Assembly: GCA_963765495.1 (NCBI GenBank)
Contig: CAVXWP010000001.1
Location: 672,001 to 736,000 of the forward strand
DNA from: Blastocatellia bacterium
GTDB lineage: Bacteria; Acidobacteriota; Blastocatellia; UBA7656
Length of the DNA: 64,000 nt
Direction: 5' to 3'
Positions 1 through 37,945 of the stretch are shown here, in pieces. Every line of letters begins with the position of its first letter. The stretch's first letter is position 1. The translations under genes and the position numbers were made by a program. The notes beneath the pieces are model-generated. The model was not told where the DNA came from. It saw only the letters and a program-made list of their open reading frames with translations, and did not search any database.

Positions 1-734
1 CCGAATCAATCGCGGCAAGCGACACGATAGTCTACGATTACCTCGTAAACCCGGAAGTCCTCGTTCACGCGCGGCAGGGCGTGGAATTGATCTACGTTGG
101 TAAACGCGCAGGCCAGCCTTCAATCTCGCAAGCGGAAATCAACACAATACTTATCGAGCGCGCCCGGTCGGGTCAGGTTGTGGCCCGGCTCAAAGGCGGC
201 GACCCGTTCATCTTTGGGCGCGGCGGCGAAGAGGCCGAAGCCCTTGTTGAAGCAGGGATTGAATGGGAAGTCGTGCCGGGCATATCCTCGGGCGTAGCCG
301 CCGCCGCCTATGCCGGAATCCCTCTCACACATCGGAGGTTCGCTTCGAGCGTCGCCTTTATCACGGGGCACGACGGACGCGGCAAACAGAGACAATCGGT
401 TGACTGGATGAGCGCCGCACGCGCCGCCGATACCCTCGTGATCTTTATGTGCGCCGAGACGATTTCAAAAATCGCTCGTTCACTTATTATCGCGGGCCGA
501 CTGCCTTCCACACCCCTCGCCATAATCAGATGGGGAACCTGCGAGCATCAGGAAGTCTACACCGCTACGCTCGACCAGATCGCGGCTCTGGATGAAATGT
601 CGGGCGAAGCCGGCTTCCGCCTAGAACCGCCCGCTATCGCTATTGTGGGCGATGTAGTGTCGCTCAAGGACAAGTTGCACTGGTTTGGGCGCAGGGCATT
701 CCAGCTTGCGACCGCGCAAACAGTTCAGGTCTAA
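1..734 (+). CDS. cobA: uroporphyrinogen-III C-methyltransferase (CysG/CobA methyltransferase domain), 5'-truncated by the window edge
   Basis: Frame is open from base 3 ([20 protein letters not shown]...). Motifs [18 protein letters not shown] and VPGISS. Adjacent to cysH and a sulfite reductase. Confidence 0.9.
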
Positions 735-747
735 ACGGAGGAAACAG

Positions 748-1479
748 ATGGCACAAGCTGAACAGGAACTCATATCGCTTTCCTACGAACCGGGTCGTAT
801 AAACTGGATAGAAACGGCCGCTGCTCAACTCGAAGATGCCTCGCCCGAAGAGATAATTCGCCGGGCTTACGAAGAGTTCGACGACCGCATCACGATAGCC
901 ACGGGCTTTGGCGCTGAGGGCATCGCTCTCATAGATATGGCCGTAAAGATCAATCCTCGCCCCGATGTTTTCTTTCTCGATACCGGCTTTCTTTTCCCCG
1001 AAACTTATGAACTTCGCCGCAGGGTCGAAGCCCGTTACGGAATCGAGATACGCGCCTTTCAAACATCGCTCACGCCGGAAATCCAGGAAGAAGTGTACGG
1101 CCCGGCGCTCTGGTCGCGTGACCCTGATCTGTGCTGCCGACTCAGAAAGATCGAGCCTCTTAAAGAAGCGCTCACCGGGCGAAGCGCCTGGTTTACCGCC
1201 ATACGCAGAGATCAAACCGCTGCCCGCCAAAACGCTCGCGCCGTGGAGTGGGATCACCGCTGGCAGCTTGTTAAGGTCAACCCGTTTGTTCGATGGACAA
1301 AGCGCGAGGTGTGGAATTACATCGTGAAAAACGACGTGCCTTATAACCCTCTGCACGACGCGGGCTACCCGAGCATAGGCTGCACTCACTGCACTCGCGC
1401 AGTCCGAGCGGGCGAAGACGAGCGGGCAGGTCGATGGTCGGGCCGGGCAAAGACCGAGTGCGGGTTGCACGCCAGCTAG
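748..1479 (+). CDS. cysH: APS/PAPS reductase, Fe-S type
   Basis: FLDTG, CCRLRK, GYPSIGCTHC and C-terminal ECGLH motifs. RBS GGAGG before ATG 748. Confidence 0.92.
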   Translation: MAQAEQELISLSYEPGRINWIETAAAQLEDASPEEIIRRAYEEFDDRITIATGFGAEGIALIDMAVKINPRPDVFFLDTGFLFPETYELRRRVEARYGIEIRAFQTSLTPEIQEEVYGPALWSRDPDLCCRLRKIEPLKEALTGRSAWFTAIRRDQTAARQNARAVEWDHRWQLVKVNPFVRWTKREVWNYIVKNDVPYNPLHDAGYPSIGCTHCTRAVRAGEDERAGRWSGRAKTECGLHAS

Positions 1480-1543
1480 CCTCTGGGATTTGAGATTTGA
1501 TTTCGAAAGAAGAGATTAAACAAAGAGGAGACGAATTTGAGCG

Positions 1544-2161
1544 ATGAGTAAAAAAGGGTTGGTAATCTGGCTGACGGGACTTTCGGGCGCGGGCAAGACT
1601 ACGATTGCCGAGGCGCTTTCAAAAGGCTTTCTAAATCGCGGATTGCGAGTCGAGATTCTCGACGGCGACGAGGTGAGAGAGAACCTCAGCCGGGGGCTTG
1701 GATTTTCAAAGGAGGACCGCGACACAAACGTCCTCCGTATAGGTTTCGTCGCGCGGCTGCTGGCACGCAATGGTGTTATTGTGCTCGCCTCAGCCATTTC
1801 GCCGTATCGGCAGTCGCGCGATGATGTACGCCGCATGGTTGAAAGCGATGGCGCATCTTTTGCCGAAATCTTTGTTCGCTGCCCAATTGATGTGCTCGTA
1901 GAGCGCGATGTTAAGGGGCTGTACAGGCGGGCGCTCGCGGGCGAAGTCAAGAACTTCACCGGCATAAGCGACCCTTACGAGGAACCGCTCGCGCCCGATT
2001 GCGTGGTCGATAGCTCCGCAGAAACCGTGGACGAGAGCGTGGCAAATCTCTTTTCGCATCTCGAGCAAACGGGCCTCGTCACAGGCCAACTCGCTCAGGC
2101 GGAACTGATCGCTTCCGTTGAGCCTGTAAATCGGCAAATCACTTTTGCCGCCGAGGGGTAA
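1544..2161 (+). CDS. cysC: adenylyl-sulfate kinase
   Basis: WLTGLSGAGKTT P-loop, LDGDEVR, FTGISDPYE. Confidence 0.95.
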   Translation: MSKKGLVIWLTGLSGAGKTTIAEALSKGFLNRGLRVEILDGDEVRENLSRGLGFSKEDRDTNVLRIGFVARLLARNGVIVLASAISPYRQSRDDVRRMVESDGASFAEIFVRCPIDVLVERDVKGLYRRALAGEVKNFTGISDPYEEPLAPDCVVDSSAETVDESVANLFSHLEQTGLVTGQLAQAELIASVEPVNRQITFAAEG

Positions 2162-2164
2162 GTC

Positions 2165-3775
2165 ATGAATCGCATCGAAGAGATCAAGAAACATAAGGAC
2201 GGTCTCGATGTGCTGGCCGATGTTTATCGCTATGCCGAGACTGCCAACTCTGCCATTTCGCCTGACGATGAACAGTTGTTCAAGTGGTACGGCATATACA
2301 CGCAGCGACCGGCGGCGGACGGTTTTTTCATGGTGCGCATACGCATACCGGGCGGGAACCTCTCCCCCGCCCAGTTGCGCACCATCGCCGATCTGTCGGA
2401 CGAGTATGGTCGCGGGCTTGCCGATGTCACCGTAAGGCAAAATATTCAACTCCACTGGGTGAAGATCGAAAACATCCCCGACCTGCTCAAGCGTTTGGAC
2501 AGCGTAGGGATCACCACGACCGAAGCGTGCGGCGATTGCGTTCGCAATATACTGAACTGCCCCGTGTCGGGCGTGGACGCCGACGAATTGTACGACACTA
2601 CGCGCCTGGTCGAGCAGGTAAACGAATACTTTCTGGGCAATCGCGATTTTTCGAATCTGCCCCGCAAATTCAAGATCGCCATCACCGGATGCCCGGTTCG
2701 CTGCGTCTATCCCGAGATCAACGACATAGGTCTGTTTGCCGTGCGCGACCCTGAAAGCGGAGACGCGGTCTTTCGCGCCCGCATCGGCGGAGGGCTTTCG
2801 ACCACGCCGCGATTTTCGAAAGACCTCGGCGTTCTGGTCGAGCCCGGTGAGGTGGTTGATTTATGCGGAGCCGTGGCGACGGTCTTTCGCGATGAAGGCA
2901 ATCGAGAGAATCGCAAGCGGGCGCGGCTCAAATTCCTGATCGAGAAATGGGAAATCCCGCGCTTCCGCGACGCGGTAGAAGCGCATCTGGGCCGCAGGCT
3001 TCGCCGCGCGGCTACGCCCGAGGCCGAAGCCATACAAGAGCGTGACCGCTCGCATCTCGGCATCCACCGGCAGCGCGATGCGGGGTCGTCTTACATAGGC
3101 ATCTCCATTCTCGGAGGCCGCACATCGGGGCGCGAACTGAGAAGGCTGGCCGATCTTTCCGAAGAGTATGCGAGCGGTCGCATTCGGACTACGAACACGC
3201 AAAACATAATCCTGCTCGATGTAAGGGAAGAGAATCTGCCCGCGCTTGAACGGGAACTGGACCGCGACGGGGTTGGATACAAGCCTACGTGGTCGCGCAA
3301 GGCAATCATCGCGTGCACGGGCGTGCAGTTTTGCAAACTCGCCATAGCCGAGACAAAGAACCGCGCCGCCGAATTGAATGCTCAACTCGAACAGGCGGTT
3401 GATATGGATGACTCGGTTCGCATAAGCGTCACCGGATGCCCAAATTCATGCGGACAGCACCACATCTGCGACGTAGGTCTTGAAGGCGCGCTCACGACTA
3501 TCGACGGCGTGAAGCGCGAGACGTTTCAGGTATTTCTCGGCGGTGGCGTGGGAGAGCACGAAACCTTTGGCCGCCGGATAGGCGTGCGCGTGCTTTCTGA
3601 CGAACTCTCGGAATCGCTTGCACGATTGTTCACCCGCTATAAAGAAGATAGAAACGAAGGAGAGACGTTTCAGGAATTTTGCCTACGCCATAACAACGAG
3701 GAACTGGCGCAGTTTCTGGCCCGGCCCGCTCTGGCTGCCGGTGATGCCGCGCTGCGACGGCAACAGGAGATTTAG
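2165..3775 (+). CDS. siroheme [4Fe-4S] sulfite/nitrite reductase (ferredoxin-type; sulfite reductase by context)
   Basis: NLPRKFKIAITGC, ACTGVQFC...TGCPNSCG cluster/siroheme ligands. Located in the cys cluster. Confidence 0.88.
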   Translation: MNRIEEIKKHKDGLDVLADVYRYAETANSAISPDDEQLFKWYGIYTQRPAADGFFMVRIRIPGGNLSPAQLRTIADLSDEYGRGLADVTVRQNIQLHWVKIENIPDLLKRLDSVGITTTEACGDCVRNILNCPVSGVDADELYDTTRLVEQVNEYFLGNRDFSNLPRKFKIAITGCPVRCVYPEINDIGLFAVRDPESGDAVFRARIGGGLSTTPRFSKDLGVLVEPGEVVDLCGAVATVFRDEGNRENRKRARLKFLIEKWEIPRFRDAVEAHLGRRLRRAATPEAEAIQERDRSHLGIHRQRDAGSSYIGISILGGRTSGRELRRLADLSEEYASGRIRTTNTQNIILLDVREENLPALERELDRDGVGYKPTWSRKAIIACTGVQFCKLAIAETKNRAAELNAQLEQAVDMDDSVRISVTGCPNSCGQHHICDVGLEGALTTIDGVKRETFQVFLGGGVGEHETFGRRIGVRVLSDELSESLARLFTRYKEDRNEGETFQEFCLRHNNEELAQFLARPALAAGDAALRRQQEI

Positions 3776-3812
3776 ACAGGATTTACAGGATTATGAAGGA
3801 TTAAACAAGATT
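3772..3812. repeat. short degenerate tandem repeat (ACAGGATTT-type)
   Basis: ttagacaggatttacaggattatgaaggattaaacaagatt; same family as 9145 and 27875. Confidence 0.7.
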
Positions 3813-3835
3813 GCCGGTTGAGCCGGGCCGCATCG

Positions 3836-3890
3836 CTTATCAGGTGATAAGGATTAATTATTTGCCGCCGCCCGAAGTTCATGGTATCCC
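3836..3890 (+). promoter_or_regulatory. putative LysR-type operator plus promoter upstream of leuA
   Basis: CTTATCaggtGATAAG palindrome overlapping ATAA-N7-TTAT (3847-3861), then TTGCCG-N17-TATCCC. Near-identical copy upstream of leuC. Confidence 0.65.
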
Positions 3891-3943
3891 CTAACAGGCC
3901 ATAAATTTTTCAAGATCACGAATTTCAAGAAAGGCTTGAACGA

Positions 3944-5518
3944 ATGTCTAACAGGGTAGCCATCTTCGATACCACGCTCAGAGACGGCGAGCAGTCGCCG
4001 GGTTGCAGCATGAATCTTGAAGAGAAACTGCGAATGGCTCATCAGCTTGAAGCGCTTGGGGTGGACATAATAGAAGCCGGTTTTCCAATCGCTTCGGAAG
4101 ACGATTTCGCGGCCGTGCGCCAGATCGCAGGTGAGTGCCGGAACACCCGGGTAGCCGCTCTTGCTCGCGCAACGCGTGAAGATATAACGCGAGCTTGGGA
4201 AGCGATCAGAGACGCCGCCCGCCCGCGCATCCACACGTTTCTCGCCACCTCTGATCTTCATCTCGAATATAAACTTAAGATCACCCGCCAGCAGGCGCTC
4301 GAACAAATCAGCAGCATGGTTGGGCTGGCCGCGGGCTTTACGGATGATGTGGAGTTTTCGCCCGAAGACGCTACGCGCACCGATCTCGAATTTCTTTGCG
4401 AAGCGGTTCGCGCGGCCATCCGAGCCGGGGCTACGACAATAAATATCCCGGACACCGTAGGCTACACCATCCCGCGAGAGTTCACACACATCATCAACAC
4501 TCTGCGCGAGCGCGTAGAAGAGATTGATCGGGTCACCATTTCCGTGCATTGCCACAACGATCTGGGGCTTGCGGTTGCAAATTCGCTTGCCGCTATCGAA
4601 GCGGGCGCGCGCCAGATCGAATGCACCATAAACGGCATAGGCGAGCGCGCGGGCAATGCTTCGCTTGAAGAGGCCGTGATGGCGCTCAGAGTGCGCGGCG
4701 ATCTCCTCCATTACGAAACCGGGATCAATACGGAAGAGATTCACCGCGCAAGCCAGTTGCTCTCAAACATCACGGGCATTCAGGTGCAGCCAAACAAGGC
4801 GATAGTGGGCCGCAACGCATTCGCGCACGAGGCGGGCATACATCAACACGGCGTGATACAAAACAGCCTGACCTATGAAATCATGCGGCCCGAAACGGTG
4901 GGCGCAAAACAGAGCACCCTCGTCTTGGGCAAGCACTCGGGTCGGCACGCGTTGCAGAAACGATTTGAGGAGATGGGCTATACGCTGTCGCGCCCCGACC
5001 TCGATAAGGCGTACAAGCTTTTTACAAAGCTGGCCGATCAAAAGAAAGAGATTTACGAAGAGGATCTGATAGTCATACTGCAAGACGGACTGCGCGAGAT
5101 ACCGGAGACTTTCAAACTCCGCTCCGTAGAAGCGATGGCCGGAACGTCGCCGACTTCCTGGGCCTCGGTCACGCTCGACCGCGACGGCCGACTGCTTTCG
5201 CATACGGGGAACGCGGGCGGGCCGGTGGCCGCCGTCTATTCAGTTATCGATTTTCTTACAGGTATGCGTGGGCGACTGGCTGATTACTCAGTGCATTCGG
5301 TCACACGTGGTAGCGATGCCGTGGGCGAGGTCTTCGCGCACGTGGAATTTGATGGTCGCGTATTCACAGGCCGCGCGGCCTCGACCGATGTTATAGAAGC
5401 CAGCGCCCGCGCTTATCTGCATGCTGTCAATAAAGCTGTGCACGCGCGCCGCCATCAGGCTGGTGAAGCCGGGCGCAAAGAATCACAGGCAAAAGCCTTC
5501 ACGGGAGCGGCGGATTGA
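3944..5518 (+). CDS. leuA: 2-isopropylmalate synthase
   Basis: [37 protein letters not shown]; C-terminal regulatory domain present. Confidence 0.95.
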
Positions 5519-32222: not shown

Positions 32223-32981
32223 CTATCCGCACAGGACTGAGCCGCCGTTGACGTTGAGCACTTCGCCCGTAGTGTGGCGGGCAAGGTCCGAGGCCAGAAA
32301 CAGGATCGGCCCGGCGATGTCGTCGGCTGTGGCCACGCGCCGGAGCGGGATGGCTGAGAGGATGCCTGCGATTTCGCGCCGGTTGTGCAGAGGTTCCGCA
32401 GACATATCGGTGTCAACCCAGCCGGGCGCGACCGAGTTCACCCTTATTCCAAACGGTCCCAGTTCGCTTGCGAGCGATTTCGTGAGAGAGATTATCCCGC
32501 CCTTTGACGCGGCATAGTGCGAATGAAAAGCTTCGCCTCGCTGGCCCGCTGTCGAAGAGACCGTGATGATGCTGCCCGACCGCTGTCGCTTCATCACCGT
32601 CGCGGCGAAGTGGCAGCAGGCATATACGCCCTTCAGGTTTATATCAATCGTCTCTTGCCATCCTTGCTCGTCGAGTTCATCTATGGCGCTGCCGGTCCAG
32701 ACGCCCGCGTTTGCGACTACTATATCAACGCGGTCAAACTCTGAAAGCGTCTGGTCGAATAAGGCTCGCACATCCTCGAAGCGCGAAACATCCGCCTGCA
32801 TGGTGATCGCTCGGACGCCAAGCAAGCGAGCCTGTTCTGCTATGGCTTCGGCTTCGGCTTCGTGCTTGAAGTAATTCAAGACCAGAGACGCCCCGCACTC
32901 GGCGAACCTTATGGCCGTAGCCGCGCCGATGCCCCGCGACGCGCCCGTTATCAATGCGACTCTACCGCTCAAATCTATCAT
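32223..32981 (-). CDS. short-chain dehydrogenase/reductase (FabG-like)
   Basis: TGASRGIG, NAG, YAASK, VNSVAPG. Confidence 0.92.
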   Translation of the reverse strand: MIDLSGRVALITGASRGIGAATAIRFAECGASLVLNYFKHEAEAEAIAEQARLLGVRAITMQADVSRFEDVRALFDQTLSEFDRVDIVVANAGVWTGSAIDELDEQGWQETIDINLKGVYACCHFAATVMKRQRSGSIITVSSTAGQRGEAFHSHYAASKGGIISLTKSLASELGPFGIRVNSVAPGWVDTDMSAEPLHNRREIAGILSAIPLRRVATADDIAGPILFLASDLARHTTGEVLNVNGGSVLCG

Positions 32982-33053: not shown

Positions 33054-33329
33054 TTAACCGCCCGCGATTGCCGGGACTATCGAAACCTCTGCGCCTTCGG
33101 GCACTCGCGTTGCCAGATTGTCAAGAAAGCGCACGTCTTCGCCGTCAATATAGATGTTTATGAAGCGGCGCAATTCGCCCCCCTCATCGCACACACGGGA
33201 TTGGAAACCCGGATAGCGCGCCTCAAGTTGAGTGATCAAGTCTCTCACGGTCCCGGTTTCGACTTCGACCTCTTCGAGGTCGCCTGTGAGCTTGCGTAGC
33301 GGTGTCGGTATGATTAGCTTGAGTGACAT
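33054..33329 (-). CDS. MoaD/ThiS/CysO-like ubiquitin-fold sulfur-carrier protein
   Basis: 91 aa; [22 protein letters not shown]-terminal PAIAGG. Confidence 0.92.
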
Positions 33330-33464: not shown

Positions 33465-34703
33465 TCAGGCAGTGGCCGCAAAGCCCGAGATCACGCTTTC
33501 GAATTGAGCGAGGCGAGGCTCGATTACTACGGGCGGCCCAAGCTCGACGGCCTCCTGCGTCTTCAGCCCGTTGCCTGTGATGGCGATGACCGTCACTTCA
33601 TCGGGATTGATGCGCCCCTGCTCGATCAACTTTATGGTCACGGCGACCGTAACGCCCCCGGCGGTTTCCGTGAATATGCCTTCTGTCTCGGCCAGTAATC
33701 GGATGCCCGATCTGATCTCGTCATCGGAAACATCTTCGGCCCAGCCGCCGCTTTCGCTGATTACACCCGCAGCATAGTAACCATCCGCCGGGTTCCCAAT
33801 CGCGAGCGATTTTGCAATCGTCGCAGGCTTGACGGGGCGGATGTCGCGCGATTTGCGCTTGACGGCATCGGCTATGGGGTTGCACCCTGTTGCCTGCGCG
33901 CCGAAAATGCGCGTCTTTACTTCTTCTTCGAGAAGCCCGAGCCGTTCAAGCTCTTTCAGCCCCTTGTGAATCTTTGTGATGAGAGACCCCCCTGCCATCG
34001 GCACTACTACGTTTGCCGGGGCGCGCCAGCCTAGCTGCTCCGCTATCTCATAACCGAAGGTCTTGGAGCCTTCGCCGTAAAAAGGTCTGAGATTGACGTT
34101 GACAAATCCCCAGGGATGCCGCTCCGAAATCTGGGTGCAGAGACGGTTCACATCGTCGTAATTGCCGCGCACGGCCACGACTCGCGCTCCATAAATCGAG
34201 GTCGCGGTGATCTTGCTCTTTTCCAGATTTTCAGGGATGAGGATGTATGCGGGCAGACCGGCGGCGGCGGCGTTTGCTGCTACCGAGTTTGCCAGATTGC
34301 CGGTCGAAGCGCAGCCGACCGCTTCGAGCTTGAACTCCTTAGCTTTATTTATAGCGACTGCCGTGACCCGATCTTTGAAGGAAAGAGTGGGAGAGTTGAC
34401 GCTGTCGTTTTTGATGTAGAGACGCGAAAGGCCAAGCCGTTTAGCGAGGCGGTCGGCCCGCACGAGCGGAGTCCCGCCGCTTGTCTGGCCTACGACGGGT
34501 TCTGAGTCCAGAGGCAAAAGCTCGCGGTATCGCCAGAGTGAGGGCGGGCGCGAATAGATGACTTTGCGTGTCAGCGCGCGTCCAATCGCTTCGTAGTCGT
34601 AATCAATTTCCAGTGGCGCGAAACAATCCGCGCATCCGGCTGAAGGTTCTTTCGGGTAGCTGCGCCCGCATTCCCGGCATCTCAATCCGTTGACAAAACT
34701 CAT
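33465..34703 (-). CDS. threonine-synthase-like fold-type II PLP enzyme (possible O-phosphohomoserine sulfhydrylase)
   Basis: N-terminal CRECG...CADC Zn-ribbon, PTLSFKDR PLP lysine, CASTGNLA, ITGNGLKT. Directly upstream of the sulfur carrier and downstream of SAM riboswitches. Confidence 0.85.
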   Translation of the reverse strand: MSFVNGLRCRECGRSYPKEPSAGCADCFAPLEIDYDYEAIGRALTRKVIYSRPPSLWRYRELLPLDSEPVVGQTSGGTPLVRADRLAKRLGLSRLYIKNDSVNSPTLSFKDRVTAVAINKAKEFKLEAVGCASTGNLANSVAANAAAAGLPAYILIPENLEKSKITATSIYGARVVAVRGNYDDVNRLCTQISERHPWGFVNVNLRPFYGEGSKTFGYEIAEQLGWRAPANVVVPMAGGSLITKIHKGLKELERLGLLEEEVKTRIFGAQATGCNPIADAVKRKSRDIRPVKPATIAKSLAIGNPADGYYAAGVISESGGWAEDVSDDEIRSGIRLLAETEGIFTETAGGVTVAVTIKLIEQGRINPDEVTVIAITGNGLKTQEAVELGPPVVIEPRLAQFESVISGFAATA

Positions 34704-34793: not shown

Positions 34794-34830
34794 CAAAAGA
34801 AAAAGCCCCGCGCCAAACTAGCGCGGGGCC
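34794..34830 (-). terminator. intrinsic terminator of downstream riboswitch copy 2
   Basis: Minus strand GGCCCCGCGCtagtttgGCGCGGGGC followed by TTTTTCTTTT. Confidence 0.85.
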
Positions 34831-34849
34831 TGCTTTCAGTCTCCGGGCT

Positions 34850-34895
34850 GTTTAGCAGTTTTTTTCGTGGAGCAAGTAGCCTTAAATCGCCACGT
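34850..34895 (-). ncRNA. SAM-II-type riboswitch aptamer, copy 2
   Basis: Minus strand CGTGG CGATTTAA GGCTAC TTGCT CCACG AAAAAAA CTGCTAAAC: P1 helix, GAUUUAA, UUGC, A-rich linker, GCUAAA pseudoknot strand. Confidence 0.8.
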
Positions 34896-34905
34896 ATCTG
34901 ATTAA

Positions 34906-34945
34906 GAAAGAACAAAAGCCCCGCGCTAAACCAGCGCAGGGCTTT
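34906..34945 (-). terminator. intrinsic terminator of upstream riboswitch copy 1
   Basis: Minus strand AAAGCCCTGCGCTggtttAGCGCGGGGCTTTT GTTCTTTC. Confidence 0.8.
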
Positions 34946-34961
34946 CGAAAAACTCTCTCGC

Positions 34962-35009
34962 GGTTTAGCACATTTTTAACGTGGAGCAATTTGCATTAAA
35001 TCACCACGT
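34962..35009 (-). ncRNA. SAM-II-type riboswitch aptamer, copy 1
   Basis: Minus strand ACGTGG TGATTTAA TGCAAA TTGCT CCACGT TAAAAA TGTGCTAAACC, matching SAM-II architecture. Confidence 0.82.
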
Positions 35010-35025
35010 CCAGCTTCGAAGTCTC

Positions 35026-35054
35026 AGACTACACCTCTCGACTGACGATGTCAA
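35026..35054 (-). promoter_or_regulatory. sigma70-type promoter for the riboswitch-controlled operon
   Basis: TTGACA-N17-TAGTCT on the minus strand, just upstream of aptamer 1. Confidence 0.7.
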
Positions 35055-35059
35055 CAAGC

Positions 35060-37945
35060 TCACTGATTTTTTTGCGATTTTGTTTCTGCGCCCGCAAGCG
35101 CATCAAACCGTCGCTTTGTTTCATTTGACCAGCCGGGGATCAACTCTGTAACTGTGCCTTTGTCGTCTACGATAAACGACATCGGGACCGACACCTCTTC
35201 CGTAGCGTACAGCTTTTCGATAGCCGGAACTCCGCCTACATAAACCGGATAGCTGACGCCTTTCTGCGCGAGGAACCCCTTGATGTCAACACCCGACTCC
35301 GTATCGACGCTCAATCCGATCAGATCGATGCCGCGCGCCGTAAAGCGCGAGCGCAGCTTTTCAAGCTCGGGCATTTCGCGGGCGCAGGGCGCGCACCACG
35401 TAGCCCATACGTTGATGAGCAGACGGCGACCGGGGCGCAGTTGTTTGCGTAGAGTGGTCGCCCGCCCGTTCGCAGTCTTCAAAGCCAGATCGGGCGCGGG
35501 GCGGCCCACGGCTATTTTTAGTCCTCGGGCGAAGCTTTCAACTCGCGTCAATGGATCGGGCAGGTTCGCGCGTTTTAAGGCAAACGGTTCGGCGGTTCCC
35601 GCGCCCTCGCGCAGCAACAGGTTTGAGCCTGCTTTCGTTTCTGCCTCGAATCGTTCGGTCTTGCCGTTTGGCCATGTGACTTCTATCCACTCGGCGCGCT
35701 CGTCTCGGCCTAACCCGAAAAGCAATCGCGGGTCGTTTTGCGAGATGAAGCCTGAGCCGCCGCTCTTGATCTTTGTCAGCGTACCGGCTGATGTCTTCAC
35801 GCGCACCACTGCGCCGTAAGCATCGCGCCCTACATCCTTGCCGCCTTCGAGCGATATTCGCAAATAGTTGTTTGCCTGCCCTACGTTATTGCGAAAGAGC
35901 AGGTGCGAATCACCCTGAATGGTTGTGATGAAAACGTCGAGGTCCCCGTCATTATCGAAATCGGCGAAGACGCCTGCGCGACCGTCGCTGATCGAATCTA
36001 TGCCGGAGACGCCTGATACATCCAGGAATTTTTTTGTGCCGAGGTTGAGATAAAGCGGATCTCGTTCGTACCCGCTGAAGGAGAATCCCTGCTCGGAAAT
36101 CAATTGATTCTGATCATTGCGGAGCGCGCCTTTTTCTTTGCTTGAGTCATTTGTCTGCGTCACGACCTGACGCCAGAAATGACTTCAGGTGTCTTTCATC
36201 GACTTGCCCGAGATAAACCCGTTTGGCGAGTACAAATCTTCCCACCCGTCATTATCGAAATCAATAAAGCCGCCGCCCCAGGCCCACCCGCCTGAAAATC
36301 CGCCCACTTCCGATGTTACGTCGCGGTACTTTCCGTTGCCGAGATTTTCATAGAGGTTGTTGCCCGCGGCCAGTTTCTTCAGCACGTTGTCTTTCGAGCT
36401 CGAATTCGGAAAGAGCCGCGACAGAATGCGATTGCCCGCGGTCGAAGACATGTTTGTGGCGTGAAGATCGAGAAGACCGTCGTTGTTGTAATCCCCGAAT
36501 GCCACCCCCATGCCGTTGCCGGGGTCGAGCACTCCCCGCTCTTTCGCCTCGTCAACAAAGTGGTCGCCTTTGTTTATGTACATGGCTTTTTCGCCGAAGT
36601 CGTTTGCCACGTAAAGGTCGAGGCGACCGTCGCCGTTTGCGTCAAAGAACTCAGCCGCGTAACTCCACCGGCGGTCGTCAACCCCCCACTTCGCGGCCTC
36701 TTCGCGGAAGCGGCCTTCGCCCTGATTTATAAAGAGCAGATTGGGCGTGCCGTTCGTAGCGCGAAACCAGGAATCCGGCGTCACCTGTCCGTAACGGTTA
36801 TAACAGGATACGTAAATATCGGGGCGACCGTCGCCGTTCACGTCTCCGGCCACGGCGCTGAAGCCTATGCCCTGTATCGAAACCCCCGCTTCGAGCGAGA
36901 CATCCGAGAATTCGAGCTTGCCGTCGGGGACCATTCGATTTTCCAGGAGGATTTGCGAACCAACCGTCGAGATGAATATGTCTTCGTCACCGTCGCCGTC
37001 ATAGTCGAGCACAAGCGGCGCGACCCCGGTGGCCAGGCTCTTTACGCCCGCTTCGGTCGAAGCATCTCGGAAACGCCCGTGACCGTCATTCAAATACAGG
37101 TAATTTCGATCAGGCGCGGTCACAAACAGATCCATCCACCCGTCGCCGTTGAAATCAGAGGCCGCCGCTCCGTGCCAGATGAAGCCGTTGTTGCCCGCCG
37201 AGCCGTAAGAGGGAAGCGTGGCTGCTACGCCTGCGGGCGCGCTCACCTCAGAGAAAACATCCGTAGTTGCGACCATCGAATCGAGGCTCGCAAGTTCGAA
37301 TGAATCAAACTGCCATCTTCCTTTTGCCGCGCGTCGGGCGTTTACGTATGTGACGCCCCGCGCCCATTCGCGCTGGCCCTCGGTGTTGCGGCCTATCACA
37401 TAAAACGCGAGGCGGGCGCGACCCACAGGATTTGCCTCCTCAGGCGAATTCTTTGCATCAGCCGAGGCGGGCGGATTGAAATTAGCCTCTTTGACCTTGA
37501 AGCGAACATCTTCGATTTCGGCGAAGTGATCAAGAAATCCCGACCAGTCTTTAAGGAAACTTTCTTTCGTCATCGTGCGAAGCGCGGGTTTGCCCTCTTC
37601 GCCGTTTACTCCCCAGTCGCGCATGGCTATCCACTTGACCTGATTCTTGACAGGCAACGGCCGGGAAGGGAACGGGGCAGCCTGTAGCTTGTCGGAGAAG
37701 AATTCCGCAGTGCGCTCCGCGTTGCGATCCCGCGTTGCGACCGACAGTTCGAGCATATCGTTGGCGAGCGATTCGGATAAATCCTCGACCTGCTCAAGGC
37801 GTGTGATCTCGCCTGCGGGTGGCGATTTCTGTTCCTGCGCGCTTGCTTTGCGAGTGACCACTGCCGCAAGACAGAGCGAAAACGCGAGGCAAAGACACAA
37901 CAGCGCCCTGCCTGAACGCGATGAGAGCAACTTTAACAACTCCAT
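35060..37945 (-). CDS. secreted FG-GAP repeat / ASPIC-UnbV (CRTAC1-like) / TlpA-thioredoxin fusion, 961 aa, with predicted selenocysteine at codon 587 (TGA 36187-36185)
   Basis: ORFs 36185..37945 and 35060..36163 are in the same frame and separated only by TGA plus 7 sense codons (KDT*SHFWRQVV). Six DxxxDG repeats lie before the TGA and one after. WATWCAPC near the C-terminus. SECIS-like hairpin immediately 3' of the TGA. Confidence 0.78.
36145..36184 (-). promoter_or_regulatory. putative bacterial SECIS element
   Basis: AGUCAUUU-CU-G-GCGUCA-[GGUCG]-UGACGC-AG-AC-AAAUGACU: 8-bp lower stem, 6-bp upper stem, G-led apical loop 18 nt after UGA. Confidence 0.75.

Follow-up and report, generated by a model that had tools for sequence, protein, structure and literature searches.

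A tandem SAM-II-type riboswitch leader before a candidate methionine-pathway operon in an acidobacterium

Introduction

The S-adenosylmethionine (SAM) riboswitch class SAM-II is represented in Rfam by the family SAM_alpha (RF00521). In the passages of Corbino et al. (2005; PMC1273637) that describe it as the metA/SAM-II motif, it is composed of a stem, P1, and a pseudoknot; a promoter usually lies a few nucleotides ahead of P1, and in many instances the open reading frame (ORF) is preceded by an intrinsic terminator. Passages of Barrick and Breaker (2007) also report that intrinsic terminators often follow SAM-II. Tandem arrangements are known as well: according to passages of Sherlock et al. 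(2022; RNA Biol 19:1059, PMC9481103), there are 44 tandem SAM-II examples, which were termed 'pseudo-cooperative', and some of them have a terminator stem for each aptamer, from which a more digital response is expected. The main text of that paper does not name the organisms or genes of its 44 examples. In this study, we analyzed a leader on the minus strand of a 64,000-nucleotide stretch of DNA (the window) from a Blastocatellia bacterium of the phylum Acidobacteriota (GenBank assembly GCA_963765495.1, contig CAVXWP010000001.1, positions 672,001 to 736,000), in which two SAM-II-type units, each followed by its own intrinsic terminator, lie between a promoter and a gene encoding a threonine synthase (ThrC)-like enzyme. 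The leader very probably consists of two complete SAM-II-class riboswitches in series, which would terminate transcription of a methionine-pathway operon when SAM is plentiful.

The window leader resembles SAM-II, as far as passages on RF00521 and in PMC1273637 describe the class, in its single P1 with a tail pseudoknot, the same conserved nucleotides, the promoter close before P1, the placing of a terminator after the aptamer and ahead of a methionine-pathway gene, and the proposed OFF-switch logic. It differs from the SAM-II described in those passages of PMC1273637 in its acidobacterial host, the hosts there being Proteobacteria or Bacteroidetes, in scores below the Rfam cut-off, and in the lack of consensus pair 25-56, GCUAAA being followed by C in this lineage. 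In comparison with the tandems in the passages of Sherlock et al. (2022), the same two-aptamer, two-terminator leader was found, with no difference in design; two complete units stand in one leader, each with its own terminator and antiterminator target, as in the 'pseudo-cooperative' arrangement. Tandem SAM-II with a terminator for each aptamer was thus already published in 2022, and the window element is an ordinary further case. An earlier note on this DNA, made from the letters alone, had described SAM-II as best known as a single aptamer that commonly occludes the ribosome-binding site. The 44 published tandems show that the doubled design is not new, and the intrinsic terminators frequently reported in passages of the 2005 and 2007 papers speak against a class that mainly occludes the ribosome-binding site. 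The host had been called atypical, which holds in the one sense that it is an acidobacterium and that our literature search found no link between SAM-II and Acidobacteria in titles, abstract starts or passages, figures and supplements being outside view. The word Acidobacteria was also absent from the text of McCown 2017, with its figures and supplements likewise outside view.

The SAM-II/SAM-V 'bi-mechanism' leader of Pelagibacter, as given in passages of PMC9481103 and PMC11508383, similarly places two serial SAM sensors before a sulfur or methionine gene, and its first sensor ends in a terminator. The second sensor of the Pelagibacter tandem is SAM-V and controls the ribosome-binding site. 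In contrast, both window units are of SAM-II type and both end in terminators, and neither SAM-I nor SAM-V had a match anywhere in the genome.

Anatomy of the leader

The elements follow one another on the minus strand in the order promoter, aptamer 1, terminator 1, aptamer 2, terminator 2, ThrC-like gene, ThiS-like gene (Table 1). Each unit is composed of a hairpin ACGUGG...CCACG around GAUUUAA..GC...UUGCU, an A-rich linker, a tail UGCUAAAC.., a G+C-rich hairpin, and a U run. In aptamer 1, the GAUUU loop, the pseudoknot strand UUGC, and the A-rich linker are all present, and its tail is common to the pseudoknot and the antiterminator. The core nucleotides (GAUUU, CUUGC, A-rich linker, GCUAAA) are all present in aptamer 2 and are identical in the three copies of the genome, namely the two leader units and a further copy on contig 12. 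The earlier note had claimed the order promoter, then aptamer and terminator twice, then gene, and all of these elements were present at that place. It had also claimed complementarity between tail and terminator, and both complementarities proved exact: GCUAAACC with GGUUUAGC, and GCUAAAC with GUUUGGC (one G-U pair).

SAM_alpha was the best Rfam family at both units in an E-value search of 501 bases. The alignment spans all 79 model positions and matches GAUUU, CUUGC, CCACG, the A-rich linker, and GCUAAA. The two SAM_alpha matches that the earlier note expected were found, and both scored below the gathering cut-off of the family, which is 36 bits. The SAM_alpha scores of the three copies were 30.2, 20.6, and 24.6 bits, none of the three reaching the cut-off, and these were the three best SAM_alpha matches in the 7.3-Mb genome. 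A gathering cut-off in Rfam is a curated search threshold and not a biological property, and the SAM_alpha model was built mostly from proteobacterial sequences. The contig 12 copy is a single unit of the same aptamer-terminator build with its own promoter, TTGACT-17-TATTCT, and it precedes a gene of the bifunctional homocysteine S-methyltransferase/methylenetetrahydrofolate reductase (MTHFR) family. Mean column identity among the two units and the contig 12 copy was 78%, and 87% for the aptamers alone. From these three copies, we built a covariance model containing P1 only (model R1).

Other Rfam families were considered and rejected. The SAM-II 'long loop' family RF01726 scored just 18.5 and 16.7 bits, and ctRNA_p42d, F6, C0465, ClpQY_promoter, NsiR1, and the Thr and Leu leaders were terminator-hairpin matches far below their cut-offs.

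Table 1. Positions of the leader elements and of the genes behind them, in window coordinates
Feature	Position	Strand	Evidence or sequence
Aptamer 1 (distal), SAM-II type	34958..35012	minus	Rfam SAM_alpha 20.6 bits, E 0.022; model R1 74.0 bits
P1 of aptamer 1	35009-35004 paired with 34984-34979	minus	ACGUGG with CCACGU
Tail 1	34972-34959	minus	UGUGCUAAACCGCG
Terminator 1	stem-loop 34947-34913, U-rich run to 34903	minus	terminator scan: 16 pairs, 9 G-C
Apical part of terminator 1	34936-34922	minus	CGCUGGUUUAGCGCG; complementary to tail 1, predicted antiterminator target
Aptamer 2 (proximal), SAM-II type	34845..34898	minus	Rfam SAM_alpha 30.2 bits, E 5.4e-05; model R1 78.5 bits
P1 of aptamer 2	34895-34890 paired with 34870-34866	minus	
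Tail 2	34857-34847	minus	UGCUAAACAGC
Terminator 2	stem-loop 34831-34803, U run to 34795	minus	terminator scan: 13 pairs, 9 G-C
Apical part of terminator 2	34822-34811	minus	GCUAGUUUGGCG; complementary to tail 2
Sigma-70-type promoter	35026..35054	minus	-35 TTGACA 35054-35049, 17-nt spacer, -10 TAGTCT 35031-35026
ThrC-like pyridoxal phosphate (PLP) enzyme, first gene	33465..34703	minus	Pfam PALP E 1.6e-69; NCBIfam thrC TIGR00260 289.6 bits
ThiS/MoaD-type small sulfur carrier, second gene	33054..33329	minus	Pfam ThiS E 4.6e-16; NCBIfam SAMP1/MoaD family
Short-chain dehydrogenase (SDR), possibly third operon gene	32223..32981	minus	Pfam adh_short_C2 E 7.4e-68

Alternative pairing and proposed mechanism

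The complementarity between tail and terminator runs to 13 pairs in unit 1 and 11 pairs in unit 2. We folded truncated transcripts of both units. With 3' ends at 34926-34922 (unit 1) the minimum-energy fold was a 13-pair antiterminator, and with 3' ends at 34813-34809 (unit 2) it was an 11-pair antiterminator, each with one bulge. In these folds, UGUGCUAAACCGCG or UGCUAAACAGC pairs with the end of the terminator 5' arm, the loop, and the start of the 3' arm. Once the transcript was four bases longer (3' ends 34918 and 34805), the full terminator took over as the minimum-energy fold. A simple 7-pair antiterminator was replaced by the 11-13-pair helix after this folding. The predicted folds, like the conserved pairing in relatives described below, agree with the earlier note's proposal that the aptamer's 3' strand would form an antiterminator.

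These pairings point to the following mechanism. The 3' tail of each unit (UGCUAAAC plus three or more nucleotides) would have two possible partners. When the ligand, which we infer to be SAM, is bound, an H-type pseudoknot (P2) would keep the tail paired to the P1 loop on its 3' side; the G+C-rich hairpin downstream would then form together with its U run, and polymerase would stop, the predicted stops being near 34912-34905 in unit 1 and 34800-34795 in unit 2. With SAM absent, the free tail would pair with the terminator top (the last 2-3 nucleotides of the 5' arm, the loop, and the first 3-5 nucleotides of the 3' arm), and the 11-13-pair antiterminator could form while the 3' arm is still incomplete, which would lead to read-through. 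The competition would be kinetic, in that a free tail would capture the terminator top early and a tail in the SAM-bound pseudoknot could not. A transcript would have to escape both terminators, so that read-through would be the product of two independent decisions, and from these lower leakage and a steeper response to SAM would be expected, as in the 'pseudo-cooperative' design. The operon repressed in this way would comprise the ThrC-like enzyme, the ThiS-like sulfur carrier, and perhaps the SDR.

The promoter at the head of the leader is the sole promoter for both units. Of 109 arrays, 69 had the pattern TTGACN-16..18-TAnnnT in the 75 nt upstream of P1, mostly 14-23 nt before P1, compared with 84 of 17,250 background windows. 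Between the two units it occurred in none of 28 tandems, which argues that both switches act in series on one RNA. Downstream, the ThrC-like gene has AGGAGGG just before its start codon at 34703 and encodes a product of 412 aa. The remaining leader (34800-34704) folded no better than shuffled sequences (z = -0.94), and this comparison gave no sign of a third structured element or of occlusion of the ribosome-binding site there.

A C-rich motif, CUGCUGCCC or GCGCUGCCC, was observed directly after the U run of the last terminator (window 34792-34778, minus strand). Many ThrC-like leaders have this motif, which occupies the same place in loci L024, L033, L039, L062, L066, L072, L073, L084, and L091. 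In Terriglobia-type leaders the motif is preceded by CCCUCC, which could pair with GGAGGG of the terminator 3' arm.

Conservation of tail-terminator pairing

The pairing between tail and terminator was examined across matches of model R1 with two finders. The strict finder, which took a perfect-stem hairpin plus a T run, located a terminator in 120 of 138 matches. In 70 of these 120, the whole 7-nt tail could pair with the loop and 3' arm when G-U pairs were counted, and in 20 it could do so at six of seven positions. The seventh tail base is variable; it and its partner formed a standard pair in 102 of the 120 (C-G 51, G-C 23, G-U 19, U-A 6, A-U 2, U-G 1) and was unpaired in 18. The fold-based finder was applied to the 134 of 138 matches with enough flank, which represented 131 distinct units. 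A hairpin of -8 kcal/mol or better with a T run followed 120 of the 131, and most of the other 11 showed a visible hairpin that failed the T-run rule. The longest contiguous pairing of the tail (12-nt window) with the loop and 3' arm had a mean of 7.78 and a median of 8, and the mean for shuffled tails was 4.86 and that for the 5' arm was 3.37. Of 120 units, 89 had the start of the pairing within the first three positions of the loop, and in 105 the pairing took in 3-6 nt of the 3' arm. Lineages differ in the terminator stem (GCCCCGCGC, CCCUCCGAGC, GCUCUCGUGC), and the match to the tail is kept. This conserved complementarity supports a SAM-dependent OFF switch, as judged from the compared leaders.

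Covariation in the aptamer

The covariation sample consisted of 88 model R1 matches from named records, 78 of them distinct, and pairs of P1 and of the deduced pseudoknot were counted. The pseudoknot register is a putative one, deduced from the Rfam consensus line and from the crystal structure. Across the 78 distinct sequences, 90.5% of cells paired, compared with 87.9 ± 0.4% in shuffles; none of 500 shuffles reached the observed pairing percentage or covariation score, and slid partners paired at most at 47%. P1 pair 5-36 was CG in 63 sequences, AU in 10, GC, GU, and UG in 1 each, and other in 2, while the four inner P1 pairs were invariant. The outer helix of the pseudoknot (columns 18-21 with 59-61; loop GGC, tail GCC) varied on both sides at each of its three pairs, and 90.3% of its cells were paired. 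Since the alignment was fitted to a model of P1 only, the support for the pseudoknot does not stem from the model. In these alignments, P1 and the outer pseudoknot helix are supported by covariation.

Distribution across genomes

Model R1 matched 57 of the 61 genomes sampled from the class (the genome of the window included) and 50 of the 53 high-quality ones. Tandems, taken as two matches 110-180 nt apart on one strand in a match list judged by eye, were present in 35 of 61 genomes: 28 of 37 in the family of the window genome, all five in family f5, two of four in f6, and none in f2, f3, f4, f7, or f8. A pattern scan of named records gave at least 120 stretches, 80 of which were taken as loci. 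The matches listed included metagenome-assembled genomes (MAGs) labeled Blastocatellia, Pyrinomonadaceae, Chloracidobacterium, Terriglobia, Acidoferrales/Acidoferrum, Solibacteraceae, and 'Acidobacteriota'. Two loci from genomes in the family of the window genome, L007 and L006, are identical in sequence to L052 and L040, respectively, which stem from records labeled 'Blastocatellia bacterium'. Among the matches listed there were also a few with other labels (Methylomirabilota, Binatia, Dormibacterota, Limnocylindrales, Heliomicrobium, and Clostridia), and labels of MAGs can err. Two loci, L077 (Algibacillus) and L081 (an actinobacterium), were without a model R1 match at E ≤ 0.01 and were taken as chance matches to the pattern. 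The Rfam cut-off was reached by 1 of 20 model R1 matches in 18 other loci (37.0 bits).

The two units of a tandem carry separate signatures across genera. The distal signature is a U after P1 and ...AUGUGCUAAAYCGC (window 35003 and 34975-34969); the signature of proximal and single units is a C after P1 and ...AC-UGCUAAACAGCCC (in the proximal unit of the window, 34889 and 34859-34856). The distal signature is not universal, since loci L011 and L026 have the proximal type in both positions, a pattern that suggests repeated duplication or conversion.

In several relatives (G001 C94, G006 C67, G007 C134, G012 C105, G016 C19, G023 C129, and locus L040), the tandem operon was observed near a methyltransferase gene. 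The tandem operon and the single-riboswitch methyltransferase gene are 3-8 kb apart on the same strand in those relatives; in the genome of the window they are on different contigs.

Genes probably controlled

The ThrC-like protein bears an N-terminal Cys-rich motif and, by its sequence and setting, is probably a MetM-like homocysteine synthase. The ThiS-like protein ends in ...AIAGG, a Gly-Gly end as in MetO. The MetM/MetO route leads from O-phospho-L-homoserine to homocysteine in Streptomyces (Hasebe et al. 2024, as cited in Table 2 of PMC13759103). The window genes are like the Streptomyces pair in that a threonine-synthase-family gene stands beside a gene for a ThiS/MoaD-type carrier ending in Gly-Gly; in the window, the pair would be under the control of a SAM riboswitch. 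From the gene family, the pairing of the genes, and the riboswitch, we infer that the window pair probably forms a MetM/MetO-type route. The genome holds four thrC-family genes above the cut-off, including the riboswitch-controlled one; the other three are at G000 C1:834973-835959, C9:575020-575997, and C4:191151-192119. A ThiS homologue adjoins the ThrC-like gene in 36 of the 52 loci that hold a ThrC-like gene, and many of the others appear to stop close to the end of that gene. An SDR homologue adjoins the ThrC-like/ThiS pair in L040, L052, L055, and L075, and in two of these loci, L055 and L075, it directly follows the tandem, with the ThrC-like/ThiS pair coming next.

Gene context was recorded for 110 arrays (82 single units and 28 tandems), and since the loci were selected by the riboswitch and the genomes are related, the following counts are descriptive and not statistics. 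The gene after the array was ThrC-like in 50, a Cys/Met-PLP enzyme in 27, homocysteine methyltransferase/MTHFR in 20, SDR in 3, aspartokinase in 1, and an outer-membrane barrel protein in 1; it was another gene or none in 4, and in 4 the locus was too short. Methionine-pathway genes (ThrC-like, Cys/Met-PLP, homocysteine methyltransferase/MTHFR, and aspartokinase) thus followed 98 of 110 arrays. The single units preceded ThrC-like genes (27), Cys/Met-PLP genes (27), homocysteine methyltransferase/MTHFR genes (20), and an aspartokinase gene (1), with another gene or none in 4 and a locus too short in 3. The tandems directly preceded a ThrC-like gene in 23 cases, an SDR gene in 3, and the barrel protein gene in 1, and in 1 case the locus was too short. 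Among the arrays examined, the tandem is almost confined to the ThrC-like/ThiS operon.

The barrel protein was seen in one Blastocatellia MAG, where a tandem (L042 602-829) precedes a protein of 1094 aa (932-4213) with CarboxypepD_reg and outer-membrane beta-barrel domains; this protein could be a SAM-regulated uptake receptor. The methyltransferase/MTHFR-type ORF behind the contig 12 copy encodes 279 aa and is followed by an overlapping open frame (L002 1624-2463 and 2364-3071). Its relatives have about 610 aa in one frame, and the short ORF may be due to a frameshift or to an assembly error, or the gene may be split.

Weighing of alternative explanations

Several observations weigh against reading the leader as two working SAM-II switches. 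A search of the whole window with Rfam at gathering thresholds gave no match, both aptamers lying below 36 bits. At E ≤ 1, SAM_alpha also matched 8 of 14 control genomes, none at the cut-off, so the score alone is insufficient, and it is the context and the comparative data that carry the case. A promoter scan did not flag the leader promoter, because the -10 box fits at just 3 of 6 positions. The core pseudoknot pairs (UU with AA, GC with GC) never vary in the alignment; the invariance of the core and of inner P1 is partly forced, because the collecting pattern fixed GATTT, TTGCTCCAC, and TGCTAAA. Consensus pair 25-56 (C-G) pairs in 34 of 77 sequences and is absent from both window units, because the tail there is GCUAAAC and not GCUAAAG. 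The compared sequences are mutually related, so that all of these counts overstate independence. Finally, in the folding analysis the full-length terminators were far more stable than the antiterminators, which means that the choice between OFF and ON would have to be kinetic.

The absence of Rfam matches at gathering thresholds would also fit a leader without any riboswitch, in which repeated intrinsic terminators or a repeat element resemble SAM-II by chance, and the 1.6-kb scan gave no more terminator-like sites than chance (4, compared with 3.0 ± 2.2 in shuffles). However, the element is placed between a promoter and a methionine-pathway gene, is conserved across the class and beyond, and shows compensatory changes in P1, the outer helix of the pseudoknot, and the pairing of tail with terminator, so that this explanation can be given virtually no credence. 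It is very improbable that one unit alone works and the other is a decaying duplicate, a constitutive terminator, or a pause site. Aptamer 1 does score below aptamer 2 against Rfam (20.6 and 30.2 bits), and a pair is lacking in 9 of the 37 genomes from the family of the window genome, but in the other 28, and likewise in two further families, both units have an intact P1, core, and tail with a matching antiterminator and terminator. In distal units, moreover, the terminator follows changes in the tail, as in GCUAAAU with GAUUUGGC.

The distal and proximal signatures stay distinct across genera and both aptamers are below the SAM_alpha cut-off, as might be expected if the SAM-II-like fold sensed a related compound, for example S-adenosylhomocysteine (SAH), or if the units had diverged into a two-threshold or two-input device. 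However, the same nucleotides match the SAM_alpha consensus in both units, the regulated genes make homocysteine or methionine, as feedback by SAM would predict, and the proximal type of the distal unit in L011 and L026 departs from a fixed signature. We therefore consider a related ligand or diverged units unlikely, and two complete SAM-II-class switches in series, both responding to SAM, remain the reading that we prefer.

Implications

The acidobacterial SAM-II lineage is widespread and almost never reaches the Rfam cut-off. With scores below the threshold, routine annotation leaves the methionine regulon of an abundant soil phylum unmarked. The riboswitch can also be used as a functional label: it marks one of four 'threonine synthase' paralogues, together with its ThiS-like neighbor, as probably serving the synthesis of methionine and not of threonine, and such a role agrees with the MetM/MetO route, which was first reported from Streptomyces in 2024. 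Use of the tandem is selective: it stands mostly at the ThrC-like operon, and the other methionine genes have single units. The locus and its relatives offer natural and well-replicated material for learning what is gained by doubling a terminator switch, and the general understanding of such switches is unchanged by these findings. A further idea is that the tandem is a subfunctionalized pair and that the MetM/MetO-type route is the main and most tightly SAM-gated entry to homocysteine in Acidobacteriota; this is a speculation with a rather small chance of being right. If the pair were subfunctionalized, the distal unit might differ in SAM affinity or kinetics or tolerate SAH, and the pair would set two thresholds.

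Additional observations

The gene upstream of the leader, encoding an FG-GAP/ASPIC-UnbV protein with a redoxin domain, stops at 35062-35060. Two FG-GAP/ASPIC-UnbV repeat proteins are encoded on the minus strand at window positions 35060-36163 and 36185-37945, and the one encoded closer to the leader has an AhpC/redoxin-type domain fused to it. Domains of group II introns were found near riboswitch loci in two MAG records (L041 1652-3529 and L039 7620-7847).

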